A stretch of DNA of 64,000 nt from the NCBI GenBank assembly GCA_964646855.1, contig CAZYHQ010000002.1:9127-73126 (forward strand), in the 5' to 3' direction. Position 1 is the first letter of the stretch. Each line of letters starts with the position of its first letter. Under the pieces are notes generated by a model, which saw only the letters and a program-made list of their open reading frames with translations, made no database searches and had not been told where the DNA came from. A program made the position numbers and the translations under genes. The DNA comes from an uncultured archaeon. Lineage in GTDB: Archaea; Aenigmatarchaeota; Aenigmatarchaeia; CG10238-14; SCSR01. Of the stretch, positions 11,960-61,977 are shown one piece after another.

Positions 11960-12715
11960 TCAAATCCCTTTATTTTCGGAATAAAAAATGTCAATTTTTC
12001 TTTTGACCGATTTCAAGTAAAAACTTGTTCCTTGTTCCTTCACGGTAAAACCATCTGCAAATTTTTCTTCTTTACTCGAATCATGATAGAATTTTACAAA
12101 AACTGAAAGCGGCGAGAAAAATCTTAGGATAGAAAAAGACAATTTTAGCAACGAACTTTTTCTTGCAATGTGTGCAATCTCGTGCAGCAAAACAGCTTCG
12201 AGCTCCTTTCTGTCAAGTACATCAAGCAAACCTACCGTGAAAAAGATTGCAGATTTAAAATTTCTGAAAGAGAACGCAGCAGGGATCGCTTTGTTCAGAG
12301 CATAGATTTTTGGGATCGGAAAATTTAATTTACTTGCATAACGCGTTACAATCTTCGTCATCCAGCTTATTTTTATTTCTCTGCTTTTGTTTGAAAAAAT
12401 ATAGTATGAAGGAATTACAATTGCGCCCACCAAAGTGCTCGCCAGAAAAGTAGTTGGCAAGGCCAGCAAAGTTAGACTTGTCAGATTGTTCTGACAAGGT
12501 GCGCACGCCACACTGCAGCCAACATTTGTTGTGAACAAGACAAACGGGAAAAACAGAAATGTAAGATGGCTGTAAATCAAAGCCAATTTGGTTTTCGTTC
12601 CGAAATTAGTACCTTTCAAAAAAATTAAAGTCACTATTGCGAGAAAGAAAGAGAAGACGGATAGCAGAACTTTGTCGTCAACCACTAATGGTATGCCAGC
12701 GAAGCAGCCAATCAT
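11960..12715 (-). CDS. BlaR1/MecR1-like M56 (M48-clan) zinc metallopeptidase without sensor domain
   Basis: 251 aa with N-terminal TM helices and the HExxH motif LLHEIAHIARK. A GCSVACAPC motif sits between TM helices. The ORF ends about 70 aa after HExxH. It overlaps the BlaI-like gene by 4 nt. Confidence 0.75.
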   Translation of the reverse strand: MIGCFAGIPLVVDDKVLLSVFSFFLAIVTLIFLKGTNFGTKTKLALIYSHLTFLFFPFVLFTTNVGCSVACAPCQNNLTSLTLLALPTTFLASTLVGAIVIPSYYIFSNKSREIKISWMTKIVTRYASKLNFPIPKIYALNKAIPAAFSFRNFKSAIFFTVGLLDVLDRKELEAVLLHEIAHIARKSSLLKLSFSILRFFSPLSVFVKFYHDSSKEEKFADGFTVKEQGTSFYLKSVKRKIDIFYSENKGI

Positions 12716-13089
12716 TTTTTCCTCCCTCTAAACCTTTCGTTAAAGTAAGTGACTGCTGCAGACCCGAAATCGTCGATCAACTTGTTTACAGTTTTTTCTA
12801 TTATGGACTGCTCTAAAGTAGCTTTAGAGAATTTTGGAAAATAAATGTAGTGCGCTCCCCCCCTCCCAACTTCTACCTTCCTCTCGACTATGCCTTTTTT
12901 GTGCAGCCTGTCCAAAATTACTGCGACACTCGTGAGCGCAACTTTCCTCCTCCGCTTTAAAATTTTGTGCAATTCCCTCACCCTTGATTGCTCCTTCTTC
13001 CAAAGAATTTCCAGAACATCGCACTCGAGGGGGCTTAGAAGAGACTTCACGCCGCTTTTATCGAAACTCATCTTGTTTACGCCAAGCAT
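12712..13089 (-). CDS. BlaI/MecI/CopY-family winged-helix transcriptional repressor
   Basis: 125 aa. LSPLECDVLEILWKK..RVRELHKIL......TSVAVILDRLHKKGIVERK matches the Penicillinase_R pattern. It is first in an operon with the M56 peptidase. Confidence 0.8.
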   Translation of the reverse strand: MLGVNKMSFDKSGVKSLLSPLECDVLEILWKKEQSRVRELHKILKRRRKVALTSVAVILDRLHKKGIVERKVEVGRGGAHYIYFPKFSKATLEQSIIEKTVNKLIDDFGSAAVTYFNERFRGRKK

Positions 13090-13147: not shown

Positions 13148-13639
13148 ATGCAGCCCAAAAATGGAAATTTCATAGCGGCAATTGCAGTCGTTGTAGCAAT
13201 TTTCGTCGGGTTCCAAGTGTGGATTCTTTCCGGGGTTTACAGCGATCCTTATCAAGAGAAATTCGGTGCAGGACTTTTCGGTCTTGTAGATCATTCTGGA
13301 GTTAGCTCAAAATCTGGCATTGGCAAATACAGCAATCTTCCTCTTGGCGAAGATGGTTTCAACACAATGGTCGAATGGGACAAAACAATAACTTTAAGCG
13401 ACGAACAGAAAAAGCAATTTGCCGGGTTTAACACGAGATTGCCTTGCTGCGGTTTCGGTTTAACAACCGAGGACGAATTTAGCGACTGCAGATGCGGACA
13501 CCATCTTGCTTACGCCGGTTTGATTAAGTATGGTTTGACGAATGGTTGGGCGCGAGGGCAAATACAAGAAGAAATTGATCAATGGAAAACGGTATTTTAT
13601 CCAATCTGTTCGCAAAATCCAAAATTGTGTGATTTATGA
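13148..13639 (+). CDS. Membrane-anchored Cys-rich protein (PCC/CxC motif), paralog of 11365..11952
   Basis: 163 aa with an N-terminal TM anchor. Shares with the paralog the block WDKTITLSDEQKK...LPCCGFG...DCRCGHHLAYAGLIKYGLTNGW. Confidence 0.7.
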   Translation: MQPKNGNFIAAIAVVVAIFVGFQVWILSGVYSDPYQEKFGAGLFGLVDHSGVSSKSGIGKYSNLPLGEDGFNTMVEWDKTITLSDEQKKQFAGFNTRLPCCGFGLTTEDEFSDCRCGHHLAYAGLIKYGLTNGWARGQIQEEIDQWKTVFYPICSQNPKLCDL

Positions 13640-14151
13640 TGGGTAAATTAACATTAGGTTTGAAAATGCTGTTTAATGAAATGCGTTATGCCGCACTCAT
13701 TGTAATTTCTTCTGTAACCATTTCAATTTTGTTCATGTATTCGATGGGCGCGTTGTACCTAGATCCTTTATTTTTCAATTACTTTGAATTCTTTGAAGAC
13801 GGGTTGCTGAACATATCGTTGAATTTTGTTTATGTAACAATTGCGCCGATATTTGCGGGCATAACAGTTGCAAGCATTGTGTACAAGTTAGTAAACTTCA
13901 AAAAAAGTGTTTTCAAAGAAGGAAGCGCAGGATCTTTAGGTTTTGCATCTGCAGCTTTTGTAACAACATGCTCGAATTGCGTGCCTGTTGCATTATATTC
14001 TTTGGGGATAACGTATGGTTTATTTCAAGCAGCATTCGCTCCATTTGTTTTGCCGTTCAAACTTCTGACAATTGCAATAATATCTTTATCTTTTTATTTT
14101 GCCACAACTAGTTTAGGACAATTTTGTAAACTGAAAAAAACTCGGAGGTGA
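13636..14151 (+). CDS. Polytopic membrane protein with TM-embedded CSNC motif
   Basis: 171 aa with about 5 hydrophobic helices and GSAGSLGFASAAFVTTCSNCVPVAL. ATGA overlap with the upstream ORF. Confidence 0.6.
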   Translation: MMGKLTLGLKMLFNEMRYAALIVISSVTISILFMYSMGALYLDPLFFNYFEFFEDGLLNISLNFVYVTIAPIFAGITVASIVYKLVNFKKSVFKEGSAGSLGFASAAFVTTCSNCVPVALYSLGITYGLFQAAFAPFVLPFKLLTIAIISLSFYFATTSLGQFCKLKKTRR

Positions 14152-14370: not shown

Positions 14371-15504
14371 TTGAAATCTATCAAGAAACACAAAGAGAAA
14401 GTTTTAGCAATAGAATTGAAGGATTTTGATTTGAAGAGAATCATTCTCTTGATACTTACAGTCATATTGATTGTAGAAGTTCTTGTTACGTTCAATATCA
14501 ACACAACAATATTCAACAAACTCCGCCCCTCGAATCTGGAACTCATTCGTGTCGTTGACTCTTCTTGCTCGGATTGTCTTAACATAGACACAATTTCTTC
14601 AAAAATCCAGGACCAAAATGTAAAAATCTTGTCGGACAAGACTTTGGAAAGAAACTCTGCAGAAGCACAACAGATTATAAACAAATACGGATTAAAGAGG
14701 GTTCCAGTACTTTTGGTTTCCGGCGAAATAAGCAGAGACGAAAATCTAAAAAGCTCTTTCATCCAACTCGGCGGCATGATGACTCAGGATGTCATCCTTA
14801 TCGAAACCGAACCACCTTACGTGGACTTGTCTATGGAAGAAGTCAGGGGAAGAATTGCAATTACGAATATTATTGACAGTTCCTGCGACCTTTGCAGCAG
14901 CTTTGACGGCTTTGTCAGTACACTCGAAAATAATGGAGTTAGGATAACAGAAAGGAAGACACTCGAATATACTGCCACCGAAGCCAAAGATTTGATAAGC
15001 AAATTTTCAGTCCAAAAAATTCCAGCGATTGTCCTGTCGGCGGACATAGTCGAATACAAATTTGTCCAGAGTTTCTGGTCTCAGCTGAACGCCACAGAAA
15101 AATCTGGATTTTTCGCGCTGCACACAACCACACCACCTTACAGGAACACTTCAACAAACAAAATAGACGGGTTGGTTACCCTGTATACAATTACTGATGA
15201 CAGCTGCGCAAATTGTTACAACGCTTCCGTCCACAAACAAATTTTGCTCAGCTTCGGCATCAAACCGCAAAAGGAGTCAGTGATAGATATTTCTTCGCCG
15301 AGCGGCAAGGAAATCACAATCAAGTACAACATAACAAAAGTGCCTACGATTATGCTTTCGCCTGATGCGTCTCTGTATTCGTCTCTTGTGCAAATATGGC
15401 CTACAGTCGGTACAGTGGACAAGGACGGCTGGTTCGTTTTCAGAAATGTAGAAATAATGGGAACATACAAAGATTTGTCTAGTGGTAAAATTGTTGCCGG
15501 CTAA
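14371..15504 (+). CDS. Membrane-anchored protein with three tandem thioredoxin-fold CxxC modules
   Basis: 377 aa with a TM anchor. Three repeats of about 95 aa each carry D-S-C-x-x-C (SSCSDC, SSCDLC, DSCANC), a cis-Pro-like (V/I)P (KRVPVLLVS, QKIPAIVLS, TKVPTIMLS), and the first two end in PPY. TTG start is preceded by AAGGAG. Confidence 0.75.
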   Translation: MKSIKKHKEKVLAIELKDFDLKRIILLILTVILIVEVLVTFNINTTIFNKLRPSNLELIRVVDSSCSDCLNIDTISSKIQDQNVKILSDKTLERNSAEAQQIINKYGLKRVPVLLVSGEISRDENLKSSFIQLGGMMTQDVILIETEPPYVDLSMEEVRGRIAITNIIDSSCDLCSSFDGFVSTLENNGVRITERKTLEYTATEAKDLISKFSVQKIPAIVLSADIVEYKFVQSFWSQLNATEKSGFFALHTTTPPYRNTSTNKIDGLVTLYTITDDSCANCYNASVHKQILLSFGIKPQKESVIDISSPSGKEITIKYNITKVPTIMLSPDASLYSSLVQIWPTVGTVDKDGWFVFRNVEIMGTYKDLSSGKIVAG

Positions 15505-16099
15505 ATACAGGATTATTGCTCTGCTTGCAGCAGTAATCATAATCTCTGGTGCAGTTTATTCAAACATGTCGGCGAAAGACGCAACTCAAAAAACAAAGCA
15601 AAGTACTTTATCCACGATTACAGCCCTTGTGAGTATAAGCCAGCACAGGATACTCACACCTTCAGACTTTTCTGAACTTTCAAAAATGGTTGAAGGAGAC
15701 GCCATTGCTTCCAAGCAAGTGAAATATGCAATATGGTTTTCAGAGAACGGTATAGCAGAACACATGTCCCACAAGCTAGGAGACTTGTACAATTATATCG
15801 ATAAGGGCCAATACGAAGTTTGCATACCGCACGAAGTAGAACATATTCTGGATTACATAACGCTTGGGGATTCAGAAAAGCTAAAGGAAACTTTAGATGT
15901 TATCGATGACAATTACCAAGGGTGGTTCTCGAAATCATATTCTTTGAAACAGCAATATCCAAATACGTATGCCGCCTTGGACCAAGTCGTACTTGCAATA
16001 AATTCTGCCCTGACAAAACTAAAAAATGAAAATTACCAGATAGCTGCAGAAGTCGGTTTTATCAAAGGCTACAGCGAGCTTGGCTGTTCAGGTTTGTAA
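15482..16099 (+). CDS. Membrane-anchored hypothetical protein (His-containing helical ectodomain)
   Basis: 205 aa with an N-terminal TM anchor and motifs EHMSH and IPHEVEH. No family recognised. GTG start overlaps the upstream gene by 23 nt. Confidence 0.5.
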   Translation: MVKLLPAKYRIIALLAAVIIISGAVYSNMSAKDATQKTKQSTLSTITALVSISQHRILTPSDFSELSKMVEGDAIASKQVKYAIWFSENGIAEHMSHKLGDLYNYIDKGQYEVCIPHEVEHILDYITLGDSEKLKETLDVIDDNYQGWFSKSYSLKQQYPNTYAALDQVVLAINSALTKLKNENYQIAAEVGFIKGYSELGCSGL

Positions 16100-16144
16100 T
16101 CACAAAGAATAAATACTAACTTTTACAAATCTTGTAAAGGTAAA

Positions 16145-16744
16145 ATGCAAACTAAAATAAAAAAGACGCATTTTGCAATAATTGTTGTCGCTTTAGTCGT
16201 CTTGGTTGCAGCATCGGGATACTTTTTGTTAAATCCGTTTGGGACTTCTGGCGACGTGTTTTCTGCGAAAAGTTCACCTGCTTCTACTGGCGTAAGTCAG
16301 TCCTCATCCAAGGGCTTGTCGCCAGGCAACAAGGCACCAGATTTTGAGGTTACTACTGTTGACGGCAAAAAAATAAGTTTGGCTTCCCTAATCCAACAGA
16401 AGAAACCTTTTGTTTTATATTTTTTTGCAAGCTGGTGCCCATTTTGTACTGATGAGCTGACTAGACTGAAAGGCATCTACCCGGATTATCAGGATAAAGT
16501 AGGATTCGTTGCGGTGGATTTAGATTTGCAGGAAACTGAAGAAACAGTGACCAAATACAAGCTTTCGCACCAGTTTTTGGGCGACTTCGCTGCTGGCAAC
16601 AGGGACATATTGATAAATTACATGGTCATTGCAACCACAACAAAATATTTCATTGACAGCGACGGAGTTATTCTTACAAAGGGTTCGGGGGAAATTTCAG
16701 ATGCCCAGTGGAAGGCGCTGTTCCAAGATTTGGTAAACTTGTGA
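16145..16744 (+). CDS. TlpA/ResA-like membrane-anchored thiol-disulfide oxidoreductase
   Basis: 199 aa with a TM anchor and the redoxin-fold motif FVLYFFASWCPFCTDE. Confidence 0.85.
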   Translation: MQTKIKKTHFAIIVVALVVLVAASGYFLLNPFGTSGDVFSAKSSPASTGVSQSSSKGLSPGNKAPDFEVTTVDGKKISLASLIQQKKPFVLYFFASWCPFCTDELTRLKGIYPDYQDKVGFVAVDLDLQETEETVTKYKLSHQFLGDFAAGNRDILINYMVIATTTKYFIDSDGVILTKGSGEISDAQWKALFQDLVNL

Positions 16745-16748
16745 TTGT

Positions 16749-17432
16749 ATGGTAGATTTTGTACTGCTGTCATTAGCTCTAGCAGCCGGGGCTGCAGCCT
16801 TTTTTAATCCGTGCGGATTTGCAGTTCTGCCTGCTTACATTTCAAATTATTTTTCAAAATCTCAAAAGAAAAGTTCTCCAGCGAAAAGTCTTTTCAGTGG
16901 TGTTTCAGTCGGTGTCATAGCAACTTTAGGTTTTATTTTTCTTTTTGTAATCCTTGGAATGCTGCTGAAATTTGTAAGTCGGGATATCGGAAATTATATC
17001 CCGTGGATTGATTTTGTTCTAGGGCTGGTTTTAATTGGATTTGGATTACTGTTGATAGTCGGTAGGGGTTTTGGTTTTACAGTTCCAGTAAGATCCTTGC
17101 CTTTAGAAAACAATTTCTCCTTTTTCCAATACGGAATTGTTTATGGTCTAGCATCTTTAGGATGCACTCTGCCGATCTTCTTGTCTGTCGCATTCGGCTC
17201 GCTGGCCGCAACTTTTGTTGAAGGAATTTTCATGTTTTTTGCCTATGCTATAGGAATGAGTCTACCGTTTATTGCAGTCACGATCGCTACAGTTCTGTCT
17301 AAAGATATTTTCGTCAGCAAACTGCAGTCTTATCTTAAGTATATGAAAACAATCAATGCAATCATACTGATTTTCGTCGGTCTTTATTTGATTTACTTCC
17401 AACTAAATGCTGGTTTGTTGGTTAGAGTATGA
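16749..17432 (+). CDS. ccdA: CcdA/DsbD-family transmembrane thiol-disulfide electron transporter
   Basis: 227 aa, polytopic. The two conserved TM cysteines lie in FFNPCGFAVLPAYI and LASLGCTLPIFL. Confidence 0.85.
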   Translation: MVDFVLLSLALAAGAAAFFNPCGFAVLPAYISNYFSKSQKKSSPAKSLFSGVSVGVIATLGFIFLFVILGMLLKFVSRDIGNYIPWIDFVLGLVLIGFGLLLIVGRGFGFTVPVRSLPLENNFSFFQYGIVYGLASLGCTLPIFLSVAFGSLAATFVEGIFMFFAYAIGMSLPFIAVTIATVLSKDIFVSKLQSYLKYMKTINAIILIFVGLYLIYFQLNAGLLVRV

Positions 17433-17481: not shown

Positions 17482-18150
17482 ATGGAAAAAGCTGAATGCA
17501 AACATTGCGGAAAAAAGTTCGACTCATCAAGATCTTTAGAGCAGCATATAGCAGCTAAACATTCTGGCACCTACCAGTCAGCGAAAGTTGTCAAGAAAAA
17601 ATTTACATACAAGAGTTTGATTTTGTATGCAATAATTTCTTCGATAGCTGGCATTGGAATTTACGGCATTATCTGGGCTGTAACTTCGCCAAGTCAGATT
17701 GGTCCCATAGGATCCACACACATACATGCAGACATAGCAGTTTTTCTTGACGGAAGGCAGATAACTCCGTTTGGTCCGCAATACTACGTGCGAGCCAGCC
17801 ATGTTCATGTCGAATCTGGCCCTGGGGAAGGTACTGTGATCCACATACATGCAACTGGTGTGCCATTGGGAAACTTCTTCAGCACTTTGGGAATGAAGTT
17901 TAACAAAGACTGCTTTGTTAGTGACAACAAAGTTAATTACTGCAATTCTGATAGCAAAACTTTGAAAATGTTTGTAAAGCATGAAGGCGGCAATTGGACA
18001 CAAAACTTTGATTATGATAAATATGTGTTTACCGATTTGGACAAAATTTTAGTAACATACGGAGGCGAAACTCCAGACCAATTAGAATTGCATATGAACG
18101 CAGTTACGGATTTCTCGAAGGACAATTCAGGTAGAAAAATGCCCGTGTGA
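17482..18150 (+). CDS. C2H2 zinc finger - TM helix - His-rich ectodomain protein
   Basis: 222 aa. N-terminal CKHCGKKFDSSRSLEQHIAAKH (Cx2Cx12Hx4H), one TM helix, then an ectodomain with THIHADIAVF and HVHVESG..GTVIHIHATG. Confidence 0.6.
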   Translation: MEKAECKHCGKKFDSSRSLEQHIAAKHSGTYQSAKVVKKKFTYKSLILYAIISSIAGIGIYGIIWAVTSPSQIGPIGSTHIHADIAVFLDGRQITPFGPQYYVRASHVHVESGPGEGTVIHIHATGVPLGNFFSTLGMKFNKDCFVSDNKVNYCNSDSKTLKMFVKHEGGNWTQNFDYDKYVFTDLDKILVTYGGETPDQLELHMNAVTDFSKDNSGRKMPV

Positions 18151-18154
18151 TTTG

Positions 18155-18289
18155 ATGCAAGATCCAGTTTGTAAAATGGAAGTTGGTGAGGCAGGAATTA
18201 AAGCAGAGCATAAAGACAAAACTTATTATTTTTGCAGCGAAAACTGCAAAGCAGAATTTTTGATCAATCCGAAAAAATTCGCGAAGTGA
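18155..18289 (+). CDS. YHS/TRASH-domain metal-binding mini-protein
   Basis: Absent from the ORF track (44 aa): MQDPVCKMEVGEAGIKAEHKDKTYYFCSENCKAEFLINPKKFAK. The pattern matches the N-terminus of the CopA at 22488 (DPVCGM...YFCSEVC). Confidence 0.7.
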   Translation: MQDPVCKMEVGEAGIKAEHKDKTYYFCSENCKAEFLINPKKFAK

Positions 18290-18292
18290 GAT

Positions 18293-18835
18293 ATGAAAAA
18301 TAAAATTTTCGTACTTGTCCTTGTGGCAGTTGTATTAGCTTCGAGTAGCGTGTTAGCCCACCAAGTCGAAAAAACAAAGACAGTCGAAGAAATTCTCGCA
18401 GAAATTACGAGAGAACAAAATGTTGTTGCTGTGAGTCAGATCGACTGCAATAAAGTTTCTAATTTGCAATTTGAAGACCTTGGGGATGCTGTAATGGAAA
18501 GAATGGTTGGTAGCCACGAGCAGCATGAACAAATGGATGCAATGATGGGCGGAGAAGGCTCAGCTAGTCTTGTGCAAATGCACACGATTATGGGAAAAAA
18601 TTGGTTGAGTTGCAACAATTTGCAGGGAATGATGGTTGTAGGAATGACAGGAACTAACATGATGCCAATGATGATGAGAATGATGGGGAATTACTATCCA
18701 GCGTACTACAGCAGATACGATTCCTTGTTGGTTTTTACTTTAATCGGATGGGCACTCGCAATAATTCTGCTTGTGGTGTTATTAATTTTTTCAACAACTG
18801 GAAAATTAAAATTCCGAAAGAGAAGAATTGAATAA
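18293..18835 (+). CDS. Exported Met/His-rich protein with C-terminal TM anchor (putative Cu(I) binding)
   Basis: 180 aa with a signal peptide, then HEQHEQMDAMMGGEG and GMMVVGMTGTNMMPMMMRMMG, and a C-terminal TM helix. Confidence 0.6.
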   Translation: MKNKIFVLVLVAVVLASSSVLAHQVEKTKTVEEILAEITREQNVVAVSQIDCNKVSNLQFEDLGDAVMERMVGSHEQHEQMDAMMGGEGSASLVQMHTIMGKNWLSCNNLQGMMVVGMTGTNMMPMMMRMMGNYYPAYYSRYDSLLVFTLIGWALAIILLVVLLIFSTTGKLKFRKRRIE

Positions 18836-18870: not shown

Positions 18871-19368
18871 ATGTCTCGATTTTTTTCAAACACAAATAGA
18901 GTTTTAGGTTTTTTGATTATTGTCGTTTCTGTAATTTCCTTTCTTTCCCTTTACAATGTCACTATGAAAATAGCCGAGACCACACACACGCAATGCTTAG
19001 CAGTTCACACTGAAACAAGCTGTACGGTTTTAGGGCATATACCATACGAGTCTTTTCTGGGTTTAGGCGGTCTGACTTTTCTAGGTTTCAGTGGCATGTA
19101 CATAATTCTCAAAGAGGGGGCGAAACTTAGGTCTACAAGCAGGACAATCAGGAACGTTAATGAGGCATTGAAAAATCTTGATGGCGAGGAAAAAACTATT
19201 TACGGCCAAATAAAAGATTCTGACGGTTTCATCTTCCAAAACGATCTGATACAAAAAACTGGGTTTTCGAAAGTAAAAGTTAGTAGATTGTTAGATAAAC
19301 TAGAAGCAAAAAATTTAGTTGAGAGAAGAAGGCGCGGAATGAGCAACGTTGTCGTTTTGAAATACTGA
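18871..19368 (+). CDS. Membrane-tethered winged-helix transcriptional regulator
   Basis: 165 aa with two N-terminal TM helices and a C-terminal wHTH (LIQKTGFSKVKVSRLLDKLEAKNLVERRRRG). Confidence 0.65.
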   Translation: MSRFFSNTNRVLGFLIIVVSVISFLSLYNVTMKIAETTHTQCLAVHTETSCTVLGHIPYESFLGLGGLTFLGFSGMYIILKEGAKLRSTSRTIRNVNEALKNLDGEEKTIYGQIKDSDGFIFQNDLIQKTGFSKVKVSRLLDKLEAKNLVERRRRGMSNVVVLKY

Positions 19369-19431: not shown

Positions 19432-19884
19432 ATGGAAGTAAAAATAAAAAACAGTACAGCAGTGGCAATAAGCTTGGTGATAATCGCTGCTCTGATAGGT
19501 GCTACAGGTTTTTTGTTGGCGCAGATGTACCTGCCTAAAACCGGATACGTTGTTTCAGCCGGACAAGTTGCGGTACCCACTGGCGTTGACCAGTCAAACA
19601 TCTTTGAAGGTAAGATAACCAGTCCAAAAGTCAGCCCTGGAAAATTGGAAGGGGTCACGACGTACGATGCAAACTGTGTTGGTAACGAAATTACTCAGTG
19701 TGATTCTGGCATAATGACCGTGGAATATGGCGTGCTCAATTTCCATTACTCGCACAAGATGGAAATCCAACCTTGCTTGCACATGTTCGGACCTGAGAAA
19801 GTTATTGTAGACATCCTAGATTCAGATGGGAATGCAAAAATTACAAGGACCATCGACGTCAGCATGATGGGTCATCACGAGTGA
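19432..19884 (+). CDS. Membrane-anchored hypothetical protein (Cys/His ectodomain)
   Basis: 150 aa with a TM anchor. The ectodomain has 3 Cys, HYSHKME, and a C-terminal MMGHHE. Confidence 0.5.
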   Translation: MEVKIKNSTAVAISLVIIAALIGATGFLLAQMYLPKTGYVVSAGQVAVPTGVDQSNIFEGKITSPKVSPGKLEGVTTYDANCVGNEITQCDSGIMTVEYGVLNFHYSHKMEIQPCLHMFGPEKVIVDILDSDGNAKITRTIDVSMMGHHE

Positions 19885-20042
19885 ATTGCGTGGTAGGATT
19901 ATTCGGATTTGGCAAACCAAAATGTGCACAATGCGGAATGGCGTTGGGAGAACAGACATACGAATGGGAAAACAGAAAATTCTGTTGCCATGACTGCAAA
20001 ACAGCTTTCAGAAAGGGCAAGTCAAAAGCAAGCTGTCATTAA
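19881..20042 (+). CDS. TRASH-like zinc-ribbon mini-protein
   Basis: Absent from the ORF track (about 53 aa): ...KCAQCGMALGEQTYEWENRKFCCHDCKTAFRKGKSKASCH. GTG start overlaps the upstream stop (GTGA); the exact start is uncertain. Confidence 0.5.
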   Translation: MNCVVGLFGFGKPKCAQCGMALGEQTYEWENRKFCCHDCKTAFRKGKSKASCH

Positions 20043-20050
20043 GTGATTTC

Positions 20051-20581
20051 ATGAAAACTCTGCTGGTAAAGGTTTCGTTTACGGTAATTTTTTTAGCGTT
20101 ATTCTTGAACTTTGTCCAGCCAGTCTATGCACATTGCCCGTTGTGCACAGCTGCAACTGGCGCGGCTATAGCAGTAACGCGTTGGTACGGAATTGACGAT
20201 TCTGTGGTAGGTTTGTTTGTAGGTGGAATGATAATCTCAACAGCATTTTGGTTCAACAACATCTTGAAAAAGAGAAACAAAGGGAAAGAGTATATTGCCT
20301 ACCAAGGTTTGATTTTGATTTTCATCTCTTTGCTTTCTACCCTTGTATCATTTTACTTTGGTGGTCTGATCGGCACAGGCATTTATATTTTGTACGGAAT
20401 TGACAAACTATTGATAGGTATTTTCATCGGCTCATTTTTAACTTGGTTCGCATTTTACTTGCACGACATGTTAAGGCAAATTAATAGAGATAAAAATTAC
20501 ATACCGTTCCAGGCTATCGTACTGGCTTTTGTGTTTCTATCAACAGCGAGCGTCAGCTTTTATTTTGCAGGGTGGCTGTAA
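20051..20581 (+). CDS. Polytopic membrane protein with N-terminal CPLC and an internal two-fold repeat
   Basis: 176 aa with a signal-like N-terminus ending VYA|HCPLCTAATG. Two units of about 70 aa share (W/L)YGID..G.F.G...N(K/R).K.YI..Q...L.F......SVSFYF.G. Confidence 0.6.
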   Translation: MKTLLVKVSFTVIFLALFLNFVQPVYAHCPLCTAATGAAIAVTRWYGIDDSVVGLFVGGMIISTAFWFNNILKKRNKGKEYIAYQGLILIFISLLSTLVSFYFGGLIGTGIYILYGIDKLLIGIFIGSFLTWFAFYLHDMLRQINRDKNYIPFQAIVLAFVFLSTASVSFYFAGWL

Positions 20582-20986
20582 ATGGACGAAAATAAAAAAG
20601 TTGACTTGACACAAAAGGAGGACATGAGCATCGCTGTTATGAATCTAATCAGCCTGGAAGAACATTTTGCGTTTACTGCGATGAAAACCGGAAATGAAAT
20701 TTATCTGGAGGTTTTGAAAGAAGTGAGAAAAATACGAGTCAGCTTGATGAAAAGGTTAGTTGTGAACACCGAAGGCGAGCTGTGGTGCATCAGCAAACAC
20801 TTGCTTGCAGCTACAATAAGGCTGATGGAGACTTCCACCAAATACCTCGACTCCGATGTGAAACTTGCTATGCAGACTGAAAAGCAGGCGCTTGATCTGT
20901 ACAGCCTATTTTGGTTTTTGCAAAAGACCGGTGAAAAAAATGCTGCTAGAAAATTTAAGCAAGCGACTAAAAAAGTCAAAAAATAA
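20582..20986 (+). CDS. Hypothetical cytoplasmic helical protein
   Basis: 134-aa ORF that starts on the base after the upstream stop. No TM helix and no recognised motif. Confidence 0.5.
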   Translation: MDENKKVDLTQKEDMSIAVMNLISLEEHFAFTAMKTGNEIYLEVLKEVRKIRVSLMKRLVVNTEGELWCISKHLLAATIRLMETSTKYLDSDVKLAMQTEKQALDLYSLFWFLQKTGEKNAARKFKQATKKVKK

Positions 20987-21016
20987 AATTTCACAAACAA
21001 TGAAAGAGGTTTTGGA

Positions 21017-21439
21017 ATGTTGTTTGGAAAAATAAACAGGTTAAAAGGGAAATTGTCAGCTGTATTTGGAAATGCCGCTGGTGTCGGCAGCATCATCTCC
21101 GCGCACAACGTTTGTCATTGGCTGTGCCTTGCTGCGGTAGCCGCACTTTCTGTTTTTGGTATTGCAGTCTCGAGTACGGCTTTGATGTTTCTAGAAGATT
21201 ACAATTTACTTTTTTGGGGTATGGGTTTGGCCTTTCTTGCCGTTAGTTTGTTTCTTTACTCAAAAAATCCAAAATGCATTTCAAAAAAACTTATTTTGTT
21301 TAACGTTGGTTTGCTTGTTATCGGCACGCCCTTCGTTGCACAGTTCAGTTCATTTTTTTGGCTTACCGGAGGTTTAATTGTCGCCATGACTTCTGGATTT
21401 TATTTCAAAGAAAAATTTTTTGCTGGTGAAAAAGAATGA
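21017..21439 (+). CDS. Polytopic membrane protein with TM-embedded CHWLC motif
   Basis: 140 aa with GNAAGVGSIISAHNVCHWLCLAAVAAL. This resembles GSAGSLGFASAAFVTTCSNCVPVAL in ORF 13636..14151. Confidence 0.55.
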   Translation: MLFGKINRLKGKLSAVFGNAAGVGSIISAHNVCHWLCLAAVAALSVFGIAVSSTALMFLEDYNLLFWGMGLAFLAVSLFLYSKNPKCISKKLILFNVGLLVIGTPFVAQFSSFFWLTGGLIVAMTSGFYFKEKFFAGEKE

Positions 21440-21666
21440 AAAACCGAAATGCGAAACTGATCTACATTGCATTAGTCGCAATCGCTGCAATTTTTATTTT
21501 TACTGTTTACGTATACTACCAGACTTATTTCGGTACAGAATATACGCGGGCTGTTTCAAGTCAGAACACAAACAACATTTGTCAAGTCCCTCTGGGCTAC
21601 ACAGAGGAAGCGTGGAAAGAACACATGAGCCATCATCCAGATCAGTATAGAGAGTGTCTCAGATGA
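21436..21666 (+). CDS. Small single-TM protein with Cys/His tail
   Basis: 76 aa with a TM anchor, then NNICQVP...EEAWKEHMSHHPDQYRECLR. ATGA overlap with the upstream ORF. Confidence 0.45.
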   Translation: MKNRNAKLIYIALVAIAAIFIFTVYVYYQTYFGTEYTRAVSSQNTNNICQVPLGYTEEAWKEHMSHHPDQYRECLR

Positions 21667-22037
21667 AGAAAGTAACATACGCAATAACTATTTTAGTTAT
21701 TGCGGTAGTAACGATTGCATATTACTTATTTTCACAATCTGCAAGCGGGCTAGGGAAGTACGATGATTTTGCAAAATGTATCACTGAAAAAGGGATAGTT
21801 GTTTACGGCGCATACTGGTGCCCGCACTGTTTGAATCAAAAAAACATATTTGGTAGCAGTTGGAAATACGTTGACTACGTTGAGTGCGACCCGAAGGGTA
21901 TAAATGCAAACCTGCAACTCTGCCAAGAAAAGGGAATCAGCGGATACCCAACCTGGGATATCGGCGGTAGACAATACGCAGGTGAACTAACTTTGTCTAG
22001 TTTGGCGAAACTTTCCGGCTGCAGCCTGCCAAAATAA
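21654..22037 (+). CDS. Membrane-anchored thioredoxin-like protein of the type fused to bacterial VKOR
   Basis: 127 aa with a TM anchor. YGAYWCPHCLNQKNIFG...YVECDPKG...LCQEKGISGYPTW.IGG matches the Trx-like domain appended to cyanobacterial VKOR homologs. Confidence 0.75.
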   Translation: MSQMKKVTYAITILVIAVVTIAYYLFSQSASGLGKYDDFAKCITEKGIVVYGAYWCPHCLNQKNIFGSSWKYVDYVECDPKGINANLQLCQEKGISGYPTWDIGGRQYAGELTLSSLAKLSGCSLPK

Positions 22038-22133: not shown

Positions 22134-22445
22134 TTATTTCATTTTAGAAAGGCTGATTCCTGCTCTGGCCGTATGCTCATTCCCAATCGCCCATTTCTTC
22201 AGATTTTCGTACGAAGTTGCCCCGCAAATCCACTTTCCTGTTCGCTTGTTGAAGAAAAACGGGACCCCGCCGCAGAAGTCTTTGTCGAATTCCATCATCG
22301 TTTCAGCGTTTTTTTCGTTGTGCCAGACTTCAAGTTTTTGCACTTTCAATCCTATTTCTGATTCTAGCTTTTGAACAAGTGGATCCATATCGTGGCAGTG
22401 AGGACACTCTGTTCCGTAGAATTCTAACAAATCACTTTCAAGCAT
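22134..22445 (-). CDS. Thioredoxin-fold protein (CPHC)
   Basis: 103 aa: EFYGTECPHCHDM ... GGVPFFFN (cis-Pro), a glutaredoxin/thioredoxin_3-like small protein. Confidence 0.8.
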   Translation of the reverse strand: MLESDLLEFYGTECPHCHDMDPLVQKLESEIGLKVQKLEVWHNEKNAETMMEFDKDFCGGVPFFFNKRTGKWICGATSYENLKKWAIGNEHTARAGISLSKMK

Positions 22446-22487: not shown

Positions 22488-24554
22488 ATGGCAACCGATC
22501 CTGTTTGTGGAATGCACGTTGATGAAAAGAAAGCAGTGTTCAAAAAAGAAGTTGATGGTAAGACAGTATATTTCTGCAGCGAGGTTTGCTTGAGGACTTT
22601 TGAAAAACCTGAAGCTGAGTTGAAAAGATTAAAACTTTTAGTAATTTTGGGTGCAATAATTTCTATTCCGACTATTGCGCTCTCCTTTTTTATAAAAATC
22701 CCTTACAACAATTTTGTTTTGTTAATTTTGTCGGCTCCTGTCCAATTCTATGCAGGCTGGAGATTTTACAAAGGTACGTTTGATGCGCTGAAAGCAAAAT
22801 ACGCGAATATGGATACACTAATTGCAACAGGCACAACAGCAGCCTGGCTTTATAGTACAGCAGTGACTTTCTTTCCAACAATAATTCAAGGCGAAACTTA
22901 CTTTGACGTTTCTGTAATAATTGTGACTTTGATTTTGTTCGGCCGTTATCTCGAAGACATCGCAAAGGGCAAAGCATCTTCTGCAATCAAACGACTGATG
23001 GGTCTACAACCAAAAACAGCAACAGTCATTCGCGCAGGAAAAGAAATCGAAGTCCAGATAGAGGATTTAAAAGTTGGGGATATCGTAGTTGTCAAACCTG
23101 GTGAAAGAATTCCGGTTGATGGTATTGTTGTTGAAGGGCATTCCTCGGTTGACGAATCAGCAATTACTGGAGAGAGCATGCCTGTTGGCAAAAAAATCGG
23201 TGACGAAGTTATCGGAGCTACTATCAATAAATCTGGTTTGCTAAAATTCAAAACGACAAAAGTTGGTAAGGATACAGTTCTGTCGCAAATAATACAAATA
23301 GTCCAGCAAGCATTGACAACCAAAGCACCAATTCAGCGTCTGGCAGACAAAGTGTCATCCTATTTTGTACCAGCTGTAATTTTAGTTGCACTAGCTTCTT
23401 TCTTCTTATGGTTCTATTTGACTGGTTTCAACTTTTTGTTCGCTCTAACAATTACGATTGCAATCTTGATCATTGCCTGCCCGTGTGCTTTAGGAATAGC
23501 AACACCAACTGCGATTCTTATTGGAACAGGACTGGGAGCAGAAAGCGGGATTCTAATCAAAGGTGGAGAGGCTTTGGAAACCACGCACAAACTTACAACT
23601 GTTGTTTTTGACAAGACTGGCACTCTAACAAAAGGTCAACCATCAGTCACAGATGTGATACCTGTTGGAGTCGAACAGAAGGAAGCTCTGATGCTTGCAG
23701 CTGTAGCTGAAAAAGGATCTGAACACCCGATTGGTGAAGCAATAGTAAAACGTGCAGAAGAACTGAAAATAAAATTAGCAAATGTAAAGAACTACGAAAC
23801 AATTGCAGGCAAAGGGATAAAAACAAAATATCTGAACAAAATAATTTTGGTAGGAAATAGGGAATTCATAAAGGAAAACAAAATCGATGCAGAAAAAATT
23901 GAGAGCACGCTGCAAAAATTAGAAGGGGAAGGAAAAACTGCAGTTATCGTTTCGTTCGGAGGCGTAGTCAAAGGTGTCATTGCAGTTGCGGATACGCTGA
24001 AGAAGTTTTCAAAGGAAGCAGTAGAGGAGCTGCACAAAATGGGTAAAGAGGTTATTATGATTACTGGTGACAACGAAAGAACTGCCGACGCGATCGCAAA
24101 GCAAGTTGGTATCGATAGAGTTTTTGCACGAGTTCTGCCCGGTGAGAAAGCGAGCATTGTCAAGAAATTGCAGGAAGAGAAAAAAATTGTTGCAACTGTC
24201 GGCGACGGCATTAACGATGCACCAATGCTTGCTCAAGCCGATGTCGGGATTGCCATAGGCAGCGGTACGGATGTAGCATTGGAAACTGGGAAAATAGTTT
24301 TGATAAAAAATGATTTGCGGGATGTGGTTACTGCAATAGATTTGAGCAAATTCACAATAAACAAAATAAAACAGAATTTATTTTTGGCTTTTGTTTACAA
24401 TGTTGCAGGCATACCGATTGCTGCTGGTCTGCTTTATCCTTTCTTCGGATTCCTGTTGAGTCCGATAATTGCCGGAGCGGCCATGGCTTTCAGCTCTGTT
24501 TCTGTTGTAGGCAACTCACTGCTGATGAAAAGATATAAACCCAAATTGCGTTAG
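22488..24554 (+). CDS. copA: Copper-translocating P1B-type ATPase with N-terminal YHS/TRASH domain
   Basis: 688 aa. N-terminus [12 protein letters not shown]...YFCSEVC, TM CPC motif ([13 protein letters not shown]), [18 protein letters not shown]. Confidence 0.95.
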
Positions 24555-24561
24555 TGGATTT

Positions 24562-24846
24562 ATGCTCGACAAAAAAACTGTTTTGAAGGCTTTGGAGAGG
24601 GTGACAGATCCGGAGGTAAACGTTTCTATAACAGAAATGCAGTTGGTAGACAAAGTTGAAATCGACAAGGGAAATGTTTTTGTCGAATTCCATGTCACAA
24701 CCCCAGCCTGCCCTCCTGTTTTTGCAGTAAAGCTTGCAATGGATGTGAAGGACGCAGTTTCTAAACTTGAAGGAGTGAAAGCAGTAAAGCTGAAAGTCAC
24801 TGGCCACTACATGACAGATTTCATCAACAAAGAAGTAAACAAATAA
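24562..24846 (+). CDS. DUF59/MIP18 (SufT-like) Fe-S assembly domain protein
   Basis: 94 aa: VTDPEVNVSITEMQLV ... TTPACP, typical of the DUF59 family. Confidence 0.75.
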   Translation: MLDKKTVLKALERVTDPEVNVSITEMQLVDKVEIDKGNVFVEFHVTTPACPPVFAVKLAMDVKDAVSKLEGVKAVKLKVTGHYMTDFINKEVNK

Positions 24847-25116
24847 TTATTTTATCTCAAACTTATCGTAATCACCACGAACTTTTTCCTCTTTCAATTC
24901 GATTTTGTCAACTCTTGACATTTCTGGTCCTTGCTTGCAAAATTCAACAATTTGGTTCACTTCTGCATCATTTCCCTCTGCCAAAATTTCCACAGTCCCG
25001 TCAAAATTATTTTTTGCAAAGCCCCTTACCCCCAACCTGTCAGCAAGCTCCTTTGCGGAATAGCGGAAGAAAACTCCTTGGACCTTTCCGAAAACTTTTA
25101 TCCTTACTCTCTTCAT
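24847..25116 (-). CDS. acyP: Acylphosphatase
   Basis: 89 aa: VFGKVQGVFFRYSAKELADRLGVRGFAKNNFDGTVEI matches the acylphosphatase signature (V.G.VQGV.FR...G..G...N..DG.V). Confidence 0.9.
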   Translation of the reverse strand: MKRVRIKVFGKVQGVFFRYSAKELADRLGVRGFAKNNFDGTVEILAEGNDAEVNQIVEFCKQGPEMSRVDKIELKEEKVRGDYDKFEIK

Positions 25117-25153: not shown

Positions 25154-25189
25154 ATATGAATTTAATTTCATATGAAATTAAATTCATAT
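25154..25189. promoter_or_regulatory. 36-bp perfect palindrome (putative ArsR-family operator)
   Basis: ATATGAATTTAATTTCAT|ATGAAATTAAATTCATAT was verified base by base. Its symmetry centre (25171/25172) coincides with the annotated ATG of the ArsR-family gene, in the divergent intergenic region shared with acyP. Confidence 0.6.
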
Positions 25190-25489
25190 GTTTTGTTTGT
25201 TAGGGCATTCGGGAGTCCCTTAAGATTGCAAATTCTTGAAGTGTTAAAGAAATCGCCTAAATCTGTAACGCAAATTTGTGATGAACTGGGAGTCGAACAA
25301 AGCAAGATTTCTCATAACTTAAGATGTCTTGTAGATTGCGGTTTTGTGAAAAACAAGAAGGAAGGTAGGAAGCGAGTTTATTCTTTAAATAAAGAAACGG
25401 TTTTCCCGTTGATGAAAATCATAGATAGACACATCGACAAATACAAAGACCATTTAGTTGCTTGTGGTGTGATAAAGGAGGTTGTATAA
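25172..25489 (+). CDS. ArsR/SmtB-family metalloregulator
   Basis: 105 aa: FGSPLRLQILEVLKKSPKSVTQICDELGVEQSKISHNLRCLVDCGFV (wHTH) with C-terminal Cys residues. It lies immediately upstream of merA. Confidence 0.85.
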   Translation: MKLNSYVLFVRAFGSPLRLQILEVLKKSPKSVTQICDELGVEQSKISHNLRCLVDCGFVKNKKEGRKRVYSLNKETVFPLMKIIDRHIDKYKDHLVACGVIKEVV

Positions 25490-25600: not shown

Positions 25601-27001
25601 TTGATAATTCTAGGACAAGGGTCAGCTGCTTTCGCCGCAGCGATAAAAGCAAATGATTTGGGAATAAAAACAGCTATGGTTGGAGGCAATGCAACTCCTG
25701 GCACAGTTATTGGTGGAACTTGTGTTAATGTCGGTTGCATGCCGAGCAAAAATCTGATCACAGTAGGAACTCTCTACTATCATGCTATGAACAATTCTTT
25801 TGAAGGCATTAAATACGAGAAAGGAAGGCTCAATTTCAAGAAAGTTATTGAACAAAAAGATAGGCTAGTAAAGAAATTCAGAAAAGAAAAATATGCTAAT
25901 GTTATAAAAAGCTTAGAGAATGTCACCCACTACGAAGGTAGAGGAAAGTTCGTTTCGAAAAACGAAGTAAAAGTTGGAAATAAAGTTTTGCTCGGAGGAA
26001 AATTTGTAATTGCAACGGGTGCGCGAGCACACATTTTACCGATAAAAGGAATTGAAAAGATTGGTTATCTGACGAACGAAGAAGCTTTGGATTTGAAAGA
26101 ATTACCGAAGTCCATGTGTGTGATCGGTGGGCGTGCGTTGGGTTTGGAATTCGCACAGATGTACGCACAATTCGGAACGAAAGTTACTGTTTTGCAGCGT
26201 AGTGAAAGAATATTACCAGAAGACGAACCGGAAATTTCTTTAGCACTTACACGATACCTCGAAGAAATAGGAATAAAAATTCATACCAACACTTCAATAA
26301 ATTTCGTTGCTAAGAAAAGTAAAAATAAGATAATCAACTTCACTACTGGCGGTCGGACGAAAGAAATTGTATGTGAACAACTTCTATTAGCTACTGGTAG
26401 AAAACCCAACACTGAATATCTTGACTTGGAAAAAGTTGCAGTGAAAACTAATGAGAAAGGTTTTATTCTGGTTAACAACGAAATGCAAACATCTACTTCG
26501 CATATTCGGGCTGCTGGAGATGTGATCGGCGAGCCTATGCTTGAAACCATAGCAGCAAAAGAAGGGGCTGTTGCCGTGGAAAACACATTCACCAAAAATA
26601 AAAAGAAAATTAATTTTACAGAAGTACCAAGTGCCGTTTTCACCTATCCTGAAGTCGCTCGCGTTGGACTGACGGATGCCGAGGCTGTCAAACAAGGCAT
26701 AAGATGTAATTGTGGAGTTCTGCCGTTAGAATTAGTTCCAAAAGCGCATGTTATCGGCGATACGAGAGGGCTAGTAAAAATCGTAGCCAACAATGATACA
26801 AAACAGATATTAGGTGTGCACATATTGGCTCCGCATGCCGCAGACTTGATACACGAGGGAGTACTTGCAGTTAAAAATAAACTCACCATTGATGATATAA
26901 TCGACACTGTTCACATTTTCCCCACATTATCGGAAGCTATTAAATTAGCTGCACAGTCATTCTACAAGGACGTAAGTAAATTAAGTTGTTGTATCGAGTG
27001 A
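25601..27001 (+). CDS. merA: Mercuric reductase core (no NmerA domain)
   Basis: Redox-active GGTCVNVGCMPSK, FAD and NAD(P) Rossmann motifs, and a C-terminal vicinal Cys pair (KDVSKLSCCIE) diagnostic of MerA. The start is uncertain: TTG 25601 truncates the KFDLIILGQGSAAF strand (see finding). Confidence 0.85.
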   Translation: MIILGQGSAAFAAAIKANDLGIKTAMVGGNATPGTVIGGTCVNVGCMPSKNLITVGTLYYHAMNNSFEGIKYEKGRLNFKKVIEQKDRLVKKFRKEKYANVIKSLENVTHYEGRGKFVSKNEVKVGNKVLLGGKFVIATGARAHILPIKGIEKIGYLTNEEALDLKELPKSMCVIGGRALGLEFAQMYAQFGTKVTVLQRSERILPEDEPEISLALTRYLEEIGIKIHTNTSINFVAKKSKNKIINFTTGGRTKEIVCEQLLLATGRKPNTEYLDLEKVAVKTNEKGFILVNNEMQTSTSHIRAAGDVIGEPMLETIAAKEGAVAVENTFTKNKKKINFTEVPSAVFTYPEVARVGLTDAEAVKQGIRCNCGVLPLELVPKAHVIGDTRGLVKIVANNDTKQILGVHILAPHAADLIHEGVLAVKNKLTIDDIIDTVHIFPTLSEAIKLAAQSFYKDVSKLSCCIE

Positions 27002-46750: not shown

Positions 46751-46780
46751 TTTAAAGCTGTAAAGTTATATTTTTTAACT

Positions 46781-61859: not shown

Positions 61860-61888
61860 TAGAATAAATTGAAAGTTAAAAATAAATG

Positions 61889-61977
61889 CGCCCTCGGGGG
61901 GATTTGAACCCACGACCAACCGGTTAACAGCTTCACCTGCTATAGCATCGGGTGCTCTACCGCTGAGCTACGAGGGC
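61889..61977 (-). tRNA. tRNA, probably Asn (GUU), with an atypically placed insertion/intron
   Basis: 89 nt: acceptor GCCCTCG/CGAGGGC, D arm GCTC-AGCGGTA-GAGC, T arm GTGGG-TTCAAAT-CCCCC (one mismatch), and a perfect loop CUGUUAA followed by CCGGT. About 17 extra nt (ATGCTATAGCAGGTGAA) lie 5' of the loop inside the 5' anticodon-stem strand. Confidence 0.65.

Follow-up and report, generated by a model that had tools for sequence, protein, structure and literature searches.

Within a 64-kb window (64,000 nucleotides (nt) of contig CAZYHQ010000002.1) of an uncultured aenigmatarchaeal genome, five consecutive open reading frames (ORFs) on the plus strand, designated A (20051–20581), B (20582–20986), C (21017–21439), D (21436–21666) and E (ending at 22037), are the distal genes of a ~16-kb island of soft-metal (copper and mercury) and envelope-thiol genes that spans about 11.4–27.0 kb. 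By its sequence, ORF E is a stand-alone, membrane-anchored, outward-facing thioredoxin (Trx) of the clade whose members partner VKOR. An initial annotation had proposed that A or C, both membrane proteins with Cys motifs, is the missing oxidant of E. Our analyses did not bear out this proposal. The real partners of A are B, a Cys-rich ectoprotein and a membrane-bound DUF7343 regulator, and not E; C and D form a paired module of their own, independent of A and B; and the A-B and C-D modules more likely handle metals than replace VKOR. B and D, the conserved partners of A and C, had been passed over in the initial annotation. Archaeal RNase P RNA is present in the window, and the nearest relatives of ORFs A, B and C are found in Aenigmatarchaeota and other DPANN lineages.

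The gene neighbourhood of A was surveyed by searching one-genome-per-species GTDB contigs for the pattern AHCPLCTAA. This returned 77 loci (77 species), which were distributed among Aenigmat-, Woese-, Pace-, Nano-, Alti-, Iain- and Micrarchaeota, together with two Paceibacterota and one Acetothermia. With the addition of the window and of the loci L005 and L006 (L004 was dropped as a duplicate of L021), there were 79 A loci, whose six-frame ORFs were searched with the window proteins; 33 loci with >6 kb on both sides of A were considered well flanked, and an E-type Trx was counted if it was within 10 kb of A. B was observed immediately downstream of A, with a gap of about 0–5 nt, at 59/79 loci, and a membrane protein with a CAIC motif was found in place of B at 14/79, one or the other being present at 73 loci (31/33 well-flanked). 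The DUF7343 regulator was located upstream of A on the same strand at 62 loci (31/33 well-flanked), and an ectoprotein with the pattern CC...CxCxH, in which C100, C101, C114, C116 and H118 are invariant, was directly upstream, mostly within 1 kb of A, at 56. The regulator, the ectoprotein, A and B are a conserved, DPANN-wide four-gene unit. CopA was present at 35 loci (17/33 well-flanked), D at 28, C at 17, an E-type Trx at six (4/33 well-flanked) and VKOR at three. At least one metal-signature gene (CopA, YHS, Met-rich, PCYCGC, DUF411, small HH protein, ArsR or MerA) occurred at 57 of the 79 loci and at 26 of the 33 well-flanked ones (79%), and any Trx, VKOR or CcdA-type gene at 14 of those 33. 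Unbiased clustering of the A neighbours also recovered PCYCGC (PF13798), DUF411/CopG-like (PF04214) and DUF5676 proteins, the first two of which were confirmed by Pfam.

The Cys-rich ectoprotein had no match in PDB, Pfam or NCBIfam, and its assignment as a divergent PCYCGC protein (PF13798) was rejected (hhalign probability 1%). We noted that its homologs share a C-terminus, "...(P)GMVGGC-COOH", with tiny transmembrane (TM)-anchored proteins, so that this tail recurs on exported island proteins (L006:7422-7592, L049:13345-13572, L019:11058-11300 and the C-termini in alignment A4). Cys-bearing tails are consequently seen on both sides of the membrane, GMVGGC outside and the ...DCCKE of cytoplasmic B inside.

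The survey from the side of E agreed with that from the side of A. Metagenome contigs were scanned with an alignment of six E-type proteins and the 79 closest loci were kept. VKOR was present at 48 of these, and at 15 of the 21 that had at least 4 kb on both sides. It was nearly always a separate gene, encoding ~175–190 amino acids (aa), that started within ~100 nt downstream of the Trx gene; the rule for the E-type clade is that VKOR is normally the next gene. A was present at 1/79 and C at 2/79 of these loci, and the co-occurrence expected of A or C as the oxidant of E fails in both directions. Where VKOR was missing, four of the six well-flanked E loci adjoined the DUF7343 regulator and/or CopA, and thus recruitment of E-type Trx proteins into copper islands is recurrent. 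Three loci (L084:9548-10378, L078:3537-4466 and L110:807-1460 on the minus strand) were observed to encode an N-terminal membrane domain of ~150 aa, in which Cys pairs are conserved (about C31..C41 and C102..C108) and which is fused to three Trx-fold types: E-type, DsbA-like and the soluble type encoded at 22134–22445 of the window. This domain had no match to a hidden Markov model (HMM) of three aenigmarchaeotal VKORs and no homolog in the window; it could be a further membrane redox partner, or merely an anchor.

ORF E itself is a known kind of protein. In a phmmer search of PDB it matched 3kp8_A (E=2.2e-23) and 3kp9_A (E=5.9e-23), the Synechococcus VKORC1/thioredoxin domain protein, over residues 38/44–125. 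The YGAYWCPHC, YVECDP and GYPTW blocks all aligned, which upholds its annotation as the Trx-like domain usually fused to VKOR; its Pfam Thioredoxin score was sub-threshold. The description of E as stand-alone and TM-anchored was also sound, as the ORF has an N-terminal hydrophobic helix, predicted to be an N-in TM anchor, ahead of its outward Trx-like domain with WCPHC and the cis-Pro loop GYPTW, and contains no VKOR domain. An ORF at 21654–22037 had been proposed. The ORF is real, and its start is likely ATG 21663 rather than GTG 21654: the resulting 124-aa form (21663–22037, plus strand) was gene-called on independent contigs and is also stored in a protein collection, and its ATG overlaps the stop codon of D. 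Six DPANN homologs all retain WCPHC, GYPTW and YVEC...LC; besides the active-site pair, Cys are conserved as C39/C120 and C75/C87 (A5 alignment numbering), which makes three pairs in total. Like the Trx partners of VKOR (Synechococcus 3KP8/3KP9 and plant LTO1), E has WCPHC, the YVEC...C pair and the GYPTW cis-Pro loop, is predicted to be membrane-tethered and outward, and has as its closest metagenomic relatives separate genes directly upstream of a VKOR gene. Unlike them, it is unfused, lies in a metal island, is coupled to D and has the extra conserved pair C39/C120. ORF E in the window thus has the sequence and motifs of the clade, but is neither fused to nor beside a VKOR.

Searches of the window for a VKOR were negative, as the initial annotation had found for VKOR and DsbB motif sets. 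The best tblastn match of an aenigmarchaeotal VKOR to the 64-kb window had E=0.34, and the HMM of three aenigmarchaeotal VKORs gave a best E of 0.64 against all stop-to-stop frames of at least 40 aa. Pfam scans detected no VKOR or DsbB in the island ORFs and most other multi-TM ORFs, the polytopic, Cys-motif-free ORFs at 35208–36209 and 46409–47521 being left out; as a positive control, the VKOR-Trx fusion of L013 scored 6e-16 for Pfam VKOR. The stretch around E in which no VKOR is found thus extends at least 21 kb upstream and 42 kb downstream. This differs from the arrangement in related Aenigmatarchaeota: in L013 and L022 the E ortholog lies 2–3 kb from a VKOR-Trx fusion, which is accompanied by DoxX and a CcdA-like gene, and L021 has a separate VKOR with its own adjacent Trx 4.4 kb from the E ortholog. 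The DoxX/CcdA-like/VKOR block of these three loci is absent between E and the FeS_assembly_P gene in the window. Instead, the place taken by VKOR after the E-type Trx gene in most other loci holds a convergent gene (22134–22445, minus strand) for a soluble, 103-aa Trx-like protein with ECPHC (PF00085, E=1.7e-5). As the block is missing and E is followed by this convergent Trx gene and copA, E is an orphan of a clade that has VKOR as its default partner.

One explanation is that a canonical VKOR elsewhere in the genome serves E, and that A-B and C-D are unrelated cargo placed next to it by island shuffling only. VKOR is the default neighbour of the clade and occurs 2–4.5 kb from the E ortholog in L013, L021 and L022, in the very block that the window lacks; in addition, the gene order of the island is visibly rearranged between genomes, and L005, the closest relative, has A-B-C-D without E. 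Shuffling does not readily account for the translational coupling of C, D and E in the window, where C/D and D/E overlap as ATGA, nor for the recurrence of E-type Trx genes in copper islands without an adjacent VKOR (the window, L006, L049, L084, L100, L106 and L162). That recurrence suggests a real functional recruitment and not an accident. We consider a distant VKOR combined with shuffling less likely than not. Since a VKOR gene ordinarily follows directly, E and other orphan copies are useful as probes for alternative redox partners.

ORF A encodes a 176-aa protein (plus strand) with a signal-like helix (residues 2–21), the sequence A-H-C-P-L-C-T-A-A, in which HCPLC occupies residues 28–32, a short amphipathic helix and four TM helices. 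The signal-like helix, the HCPLC motif and the internal repeat described earlier all hold. The duplication is real, as residues ~44–103 and ~113–172 are 40% identical over 60 aa (BLASTP E=2e-17) and alignments of the two halves match by hhalign with 99% probability. Each repeat consists of YGID(D/K), a TM helix, a basic loop "K..N..K.YIPFQ" and a second TM helix, and represents one half of a tandem 2+2 duplication. A27, H28, C29 and C32 are invariant in 27 homologs with identities down to 34%, so the Cys motif also passed the conservation check that had been suggested for it. In the AlphaFold2 (AF2) model of A (predicted local distance difference test (pLDDT) 88.4, predicted template modelling score 0.77), pLDDT is <50 only at residues 25–28, a putative signal-peptidase site. 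The CxxC is predicted to be on the outer face. Weak matches to YedE in 3 of the 27 family members were rejected as compositional.

Could A be a functional analogue of DsbB or VKOR with a new fold? Its outward CPLC, on a 4-TM bundle, would re-oxidize E and Cys-rich ectoproteins, and the electrons would be accepted by a membrane cofactor or conducted through B into the cytoplasm. Several features of A would suit this role. Its CxxC is invariant and predicted to be outward, with Pro at +1 and Thr after it, and the resulting CPLCT is the same as that in the active-site string ICPLCT of the aenigmarchaeotal VKORs (L013:16355-17389 and L022:7147-8187, both Trx-fused, and that of L021, which is L004:14587-15096). 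The AF2 model has a 4-TM architecture, the three conserved Cys pairs of E mean that E needs external oxidation, and no VKOR is present in the 64 kb. An E-type Trx gene is immediately upstream of A in L006 and ~0.9 kb upstream in L049, with the regulator between them, and neither locus has a VKOR in its available flanks. Furthermore, the constant neighbour of A is an ectoprotein with four invariant Cys.

The likeness to DsbB and VKOR is, however, limited to the four TM helices, an outward CxxC at a helix start on the membrane surface and a position beside a DsbA-like Trx in three loci. An identity of five residues, as in CPLCT, is at chance level. Hallmarks of the VKOR family include four conserved Cys (a loop pair and CxxC), a conserved Ser/Thr and a four-helix bundle (Goodstadt & Ponting, as given in PMC4555120). 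A has only C29 and C32, and C only C33, C37 and C87, all predicted at the inner face. DsbB has two redox Cys pairs in two outer loops; the single pair of A is N-terminal to TM2 and not in an inter-TM loop, and A has neither a shuttle pair nor a conserved polar pocket near the outer leaflet. Its tandem 2+2 duplication is a further difference. Neither A nor C was VKOR- or DsbB-like in structure: a Foldseek search of PDB with the A model, despite its pLDDT of 88, gave a best E of 3.1, that with the C model a best E of 2.2, and no VKOR or DsbB chain was among the matches; A also had no VKOR or DsbB signal in Pfam. An E-type Trx was found at only 6/79 A loci, a true VKOR (PF07884) or VKOR-Trx fusion was within ~6 kb in three of those six, and from the side of E, A was at 1/79 loci. 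Since a true VKOR stands beside A in L013, L021 and L022, A is no replacement for VKOR there. Copper genes, moreover, dominate the A neighbourhood. We consider it improbable that A is such an analogue, and assign a similarly slim chance to the broader proposal that A, B and the CC...CxCxH ectoprotein are a DPANN-wide membrane thiol relay of new fold, a DsbB/VKOR analogue that makes or repairs external disulfides including those of E. DPANN archaea are mostly without quinone synthesis of their own.

ORF C encodes a 140-aa, four-TM protein (plus strand) whose termini are predicted to be inside. The CHWLC motif is, as annotated, inside a TM helix, at residues 33–37 of the first hydrophobic helix, and its conservation was confirmed: H30, N31, C33, H34 and C37, along with a third Cys, C87, are invariant in 25 C homologs. 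H30-N31-x-C33-H34-x-x-C37 is at the predicted inner end of TM1 and C87-x-S89 at the predicted inner end of TM2. A profile search of 1.84 billion representatives identified 144 C-family proteins, among which are natural fusions of C to D (P0088 and P0090), to a His-rich ectodomain of the type encoded at 17482–18150 (P0137, P0165, P0172 and P0182) and to another ectodomain with an S-x-HH motif (P0117 and P0122). These fusions imply that the C-terminus of C is cytoplasmic and that the single TM helix of D exports its domain. On the basis of the C+D fusion topology and the positive-inside rule, HNxCHxxC and C87 are predicted to be at the cytoplasmic face. C is disfavoured as an oxidant because this is the wrong face for oxidizing an external Trx. 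ORF D is 76 aa (plus strand), overlaps the stop codon of C (ATGA), and has an N-in TM anchor and a small ectodomain with the conserved pattern C..P.GYT..W(K/R)EHMxHHPDxYxxCL. In several Aenigmatarchaeota, a membrane protein with "ACC(A/V)H(H/Y)...P.LG" in a TM helix, which has no Pfam match, was observed to take the place of C, fused to a D-type ectodomain (L013:10862-11533, L022:3874-4563, L028:10877-11596 and L100:8426-8833).

The closest known parallel to C-D in layout is MerT/MerP (and MerF/MerC). Both pair an external Cys-bearing domain with a small polytopic protein that has Cys in TM1 and at the cytoplasmic end of TM2, in C as CHxxC and, by predicted topology, a single C87, and MerA and ArsR are encoded 4–5 kb downstream of C-D in the window. 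The differences are that C has CHxxC and not CC and four TM helices and not three, that D is not of the heavy-metal-associated (HMA) fold by sequence, and that most C and A loci are without MerA. As a MerT, C stayed below threshold: the window C scored E=0.69 (10 bits against a cut-off of 130 bits) for the NCBIfam model merT_RC607 (NF033560). No Pfam MerT (PF02411) match was found for C, and the most distant C-family members were also sub-threshold.

Alternatively, C and D could together act as a thiol conduit of the CcdA/DsbD kind, carrying cytoplasmic reducing equivalents to the external Cys pairs of D, E or the His-rich ectodomain. As in CcdA and DsbD, small polytopic proteins with essential Cys would work with external Trx-like proteins: the three invariant Cys of C are within or adjacent to a membrane helix, its fused ectodomains each carry a conserved Cys pair, and in the operon C is positioned beside E. 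Nevertheless, all three Cys of C are predicted at one face, the inner, and the duplicated PCxxP half-sites of CcdA are missing from both A and C, the duplication in A being Cys-free and C having no internal repeat and no DsbD signal in Pfam. The invariant His and Asn that flank the Cys of C look like a metal site, and the island already encodes a CcdA-like protein (16749–17432). We regard a conduit function for C as highly improbable.

ORF B (134 aa, plus strand), whose start codon abuts the stop codon of A (TAA-ATG junction), encodes a soluble protein, predicted to be cytoplasmic and, by its sequence pattern, helical. Its invariant residues are D8, D14, E26-E27-H28, R49, R52, E66, W68-C69-x-S71-K72-H73, R80 and E83, and most homologs end in a ...DCCKE tail, which the window B lacks. 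The family is large, with at least 7,845 clusters at 90% identity; all 120 matches listed were named "hypothetical" and none had a precomputed Pfam domain. The locus L100 has no A gene; in it a B-family gene runs into the start of an E-type Trx gene (L100:9534-10360), with CopA and DUF5676 nearby, and B can therefore work without A and couple directly to a Trx.

The tight linkage of A and B is also compatible with a signalling pair, in which A would sense an external metal or oxidant via its HCxxC and control B, which would in turn modulate the DUF7343 regulator. Regulator, A and B are linked in 31/33 well-flanked loci, the TM helices of A are without ligand residues, and the basic loops of A and acidic invariants of B suggest docking. 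However, the regulator has an external Cys pair of its own and needs no separate sensor, B occurs beside an E-type Trx without A in L100, and the many invariant charged, Cys and His residues of B, like its CC tail, suggest a site of binding or catalysis. We consider it improbable that A and B are a signalling pair and not a handler.

None of A, B, C and D had a match in Pfam, NCBIfam or PDB families, in keeping with the earlier view of A and C as novel polytopic proteins. Profile searches of PDB sequences were negative for A, B, C and the ectoprotein, their matches to APP, stomatin and TrbC being at chance level. A tblastn search of plasmids with A and C returned nothing relevant, and the literature on DUF7343, and on DPANN archaea with VKOR or copper, contained nothing on the A–D or ectoprotein families.

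The rest of the island is consistent with a role in metal and thiol chemistry. Its upstream edge is formed by a BlaI/CopY-type repressor (Penicillinase_R) and a membrane M48/M56 peptidase (11960–13089, minus strand), a pair that also flanks the island in L005. The ORFs described next, up to E, are on the plus strand. The homolog of the CC...CxCxH ectoprotein, which is usually directly upstream of A, is here displaced 6.4 kb upstream (13148–13639) and is followed by a membrane protein with CSNC (13636–14151). An envelope thiol-redox block (14371–17432; Pfam matches PF13192, PF00578 and PF08534) comprises a triple Trx_3-like ectoprotein (14371–15504), an ORF with no family assigned (15482–16099), a TM-anchored AhpC/TSA-TlpA-like protein with WCPFC (16145–16744) and the six-TM CcdA-like protein (16749–17432), which is recognized only by its motifs NPCGFAVLP and GCTLP. 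Next are a protein with a C2H2 finger, a TM helix and the His-rich ectodomain that is fused to C-family proteins elsewhere (17482–18150), a 45-aa YHS/TRASH protein (18152–18289; YHS, PF04945), a membrane-anchored protein that is Met-rich by sequence (MMPMMMRMM; 18293–18835) and the membrane-bound winged helix-turn-helix regulator (DUF7343/MarR_2; 18871–19368; PF24034, E=5e-11). The A unit usually begins with this regulator gene; its product contains two TM helices, and a conserved Cys pair is present in its outer loop. Between it and A are two genes. The first (19432–19884) encodes a 150-aa, TM-anchored Cys/His ectoprotein with no family assigned that is found just upstream of A in Aenigmatarchaeota-type loci; homologs were present in 15 loci, and it is 55% identical to that of L004. 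The second, which overlaps the end of the first by 4 nt and is immediately upstream of A, is a 53-aa ORF with a CxxC...CCxxC zinc-ribbon/TRASH-like pattern (19881–20042). It had only a weak zinc-ribbon match in Pfam and was omitted by the gene caller on an identical Logan contig (L001); a homologous ORF is at the same position in the window and seven other loci, and it is probably a real small gene.

Beyond E and the convergent Trx gene, the island continues with a CopA-type P1B ATPase with an N-terminal YHS domain and CPC motif (22488–24554, plus strand) and an FeS_assembly_P protein (24562–24846, plus strand), both identified by Pfam, an acylphosphatase-like ORF (24847–25116, minus strand), an ArsR regulator (25172–25489, plus strand; Pfam) and a core MerA (25601–27001, plus strand). 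The identity of the latter is clear from a search of PDB sequences: it has GGTCVNVGC and a C-terminal CC (...LSCCIE), its best matches are mercuric reductases (4ywo, E=1e-106; 5x1y, E=1e-104; 1zk7, E=9e-80), and these outrank dihydrolipoamide dehydrogenases.

Two observations were made elsewhere in the window. An NQR2/RnfD/RnfE family match (E=1e-21) was found at 48854–49642 (plus strand); such a gene is unexpected in a DPANN-like genome, given its reduced metabolism. ARAGORN reported a 90-nt "tRNA-Pyl (cta)" at 61888–61977 (minus strand), where Rfam found a generic tRNA only. As TAG ends 8 of 50 confident genes in the window, and is thus an ordinary stop codon, this tRNA is probably intron-containing and mis-typed and does not represent amber suppression. 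The affiliation with Methanosarcinales that the ARAGORN result had pointed to was rejected, both because of this ordinary use of TAG and because the nearest homologs belong to DPANN archaea.

We propose, tentatively and with somewhat less than even confidence, that the island encodes an Scs-like defence of the envelope against copper and mercury, made up of undescribed families; the individual steps that follow are held with less confidence than the whole. E, with a DsbA-like CPHC active site, may have been recruited to maintain correct Cys pairing in exported Cys-rich proteins and/or for Cu(I) binding under metal stress, as in the case of Salmonella ScsC, and would be recycled by a VKOR encoded at another site in the genome, or else by the CcdA-like/TlpA-like pair of the island acting as a reductant. 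A would display His-Cys-x-x-Cys at the outer membrane surface on its duplicated 4-TM scaffold, and its two basic cytoplasmic KKxNxGKxYIPFQ loops might dock the acidic, Cys/His-bearing and usually CC-tailed B. Together with the ectoprotein, A and B could then be a thiolate-based device for the capture and hand-over, or the sensing, of thiophilic metal ions across the membrane. C-D would follow the logic of MerP/MerT, with an external Cys/His domain (D or the His-rich type) beside a 4-TM protein that has an inner-face His2Cys3 cluster, and may carry Hg(II) or Cu(I) into the cell, in this island to MerA or to YHS-type chaperones.

This proposal draws on the presence in one island of the YHS-bearing CopA, the YHS mini-protein, the Met-rich protein, ArsR, MerA, the BlaI/CopY-type repressor, at least three Trx-like proteins and the CcdA-like protein. 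It also draws on conserved residues of ligand type: H28, C29 and C32 in A; E-E-H, W-C-x-S-K-H and the CC tail in B; CC, CxC and H in the ectoprotein; H, N, C, H, C and C in C; and C, H, HH and C in D. The Scs precedent includes Cu-induced Dsb-like proteins, the Cu(I)-binding ScsC and an uncharacterized CX2C membrane protein, ScsA (as described in PMC8900818). The island resembles the ScsA-D systems of Salmonella, Proteus and Caulobacter in being a copper-linked, envelope set of Dsb-like proteins with a DsbD/CcdA-type conduit, an anchored TlpA-like Trx and a DsbA-like Trx; ScsA, as a CX2C membrane protein without a Trx fold, is likened to A by description only. In contrast to the Scs systems, the island belongs to an archaeal cell without an outer-membrane-bounded periplasm, has regulators of the DUF7343, ArsR and BlaI types and not CpxRA, and carries many more undescribed families, and ScsA is linked to tolerance of peroxide and not of Cu. 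The likeness is one of gene content and copper-gene neighbourhood, known from the genes alone.

A number of points weigh against an Scs-like metal defence. The roles suggested for A, B, C and D derive from motifs, topology and neighbourhood, and the four have no homology to any metal-binding or transport family. Across the 27 A homologs, Cys, Met and His residues that might form a soft-metal path are not conserved in the TM helices, which makes transport through A doubtful, and A could be a scaffold or sensor only. Redox-active sites just as typically have a CxxC that follows a helix N-cap and has Pro at +1. An uptake device inside a copper-resistance island would be counter-intuitive. MerA was near A in at most 7/79 loci, and some of those matches are not MerA. 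The CcdA-like protein had only a weak SfLAP match in Pfam and no DsbD match there, and no match in PDB. With respect to C, whose AF2 model has a pLDDT of 74.1, the weak merT_RC607 match falls far below its cut-off, and hhalign of C with a single MerT sequence, that of Tn501, gave a probability of 2%. The same model was the commonest weak NCBIfam match of the C family (14 of 25 members, best E 0.02); since the members are not independent of one another, this recurrence carries no significance.

These data indicate that, although E itself is of a familiar type, the island around it is built almost entirely of families absent from Pfam, NCBIfam and PDB. DPANN archaea have little redox metabolism of their own, and yet many of these tiny-genome organisms keep a multi-gene, Cys-rich envelope island. 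The A-B and C-D modules could show how cells without an outer membrane protect their exported thiols from copper and mercury. To our knowledge, Archaea have no described proteins that hand over Hg(II) or Cu(I) at the membrane; if the metal hand-over proposed here is true, A-B and C-D could supply them.

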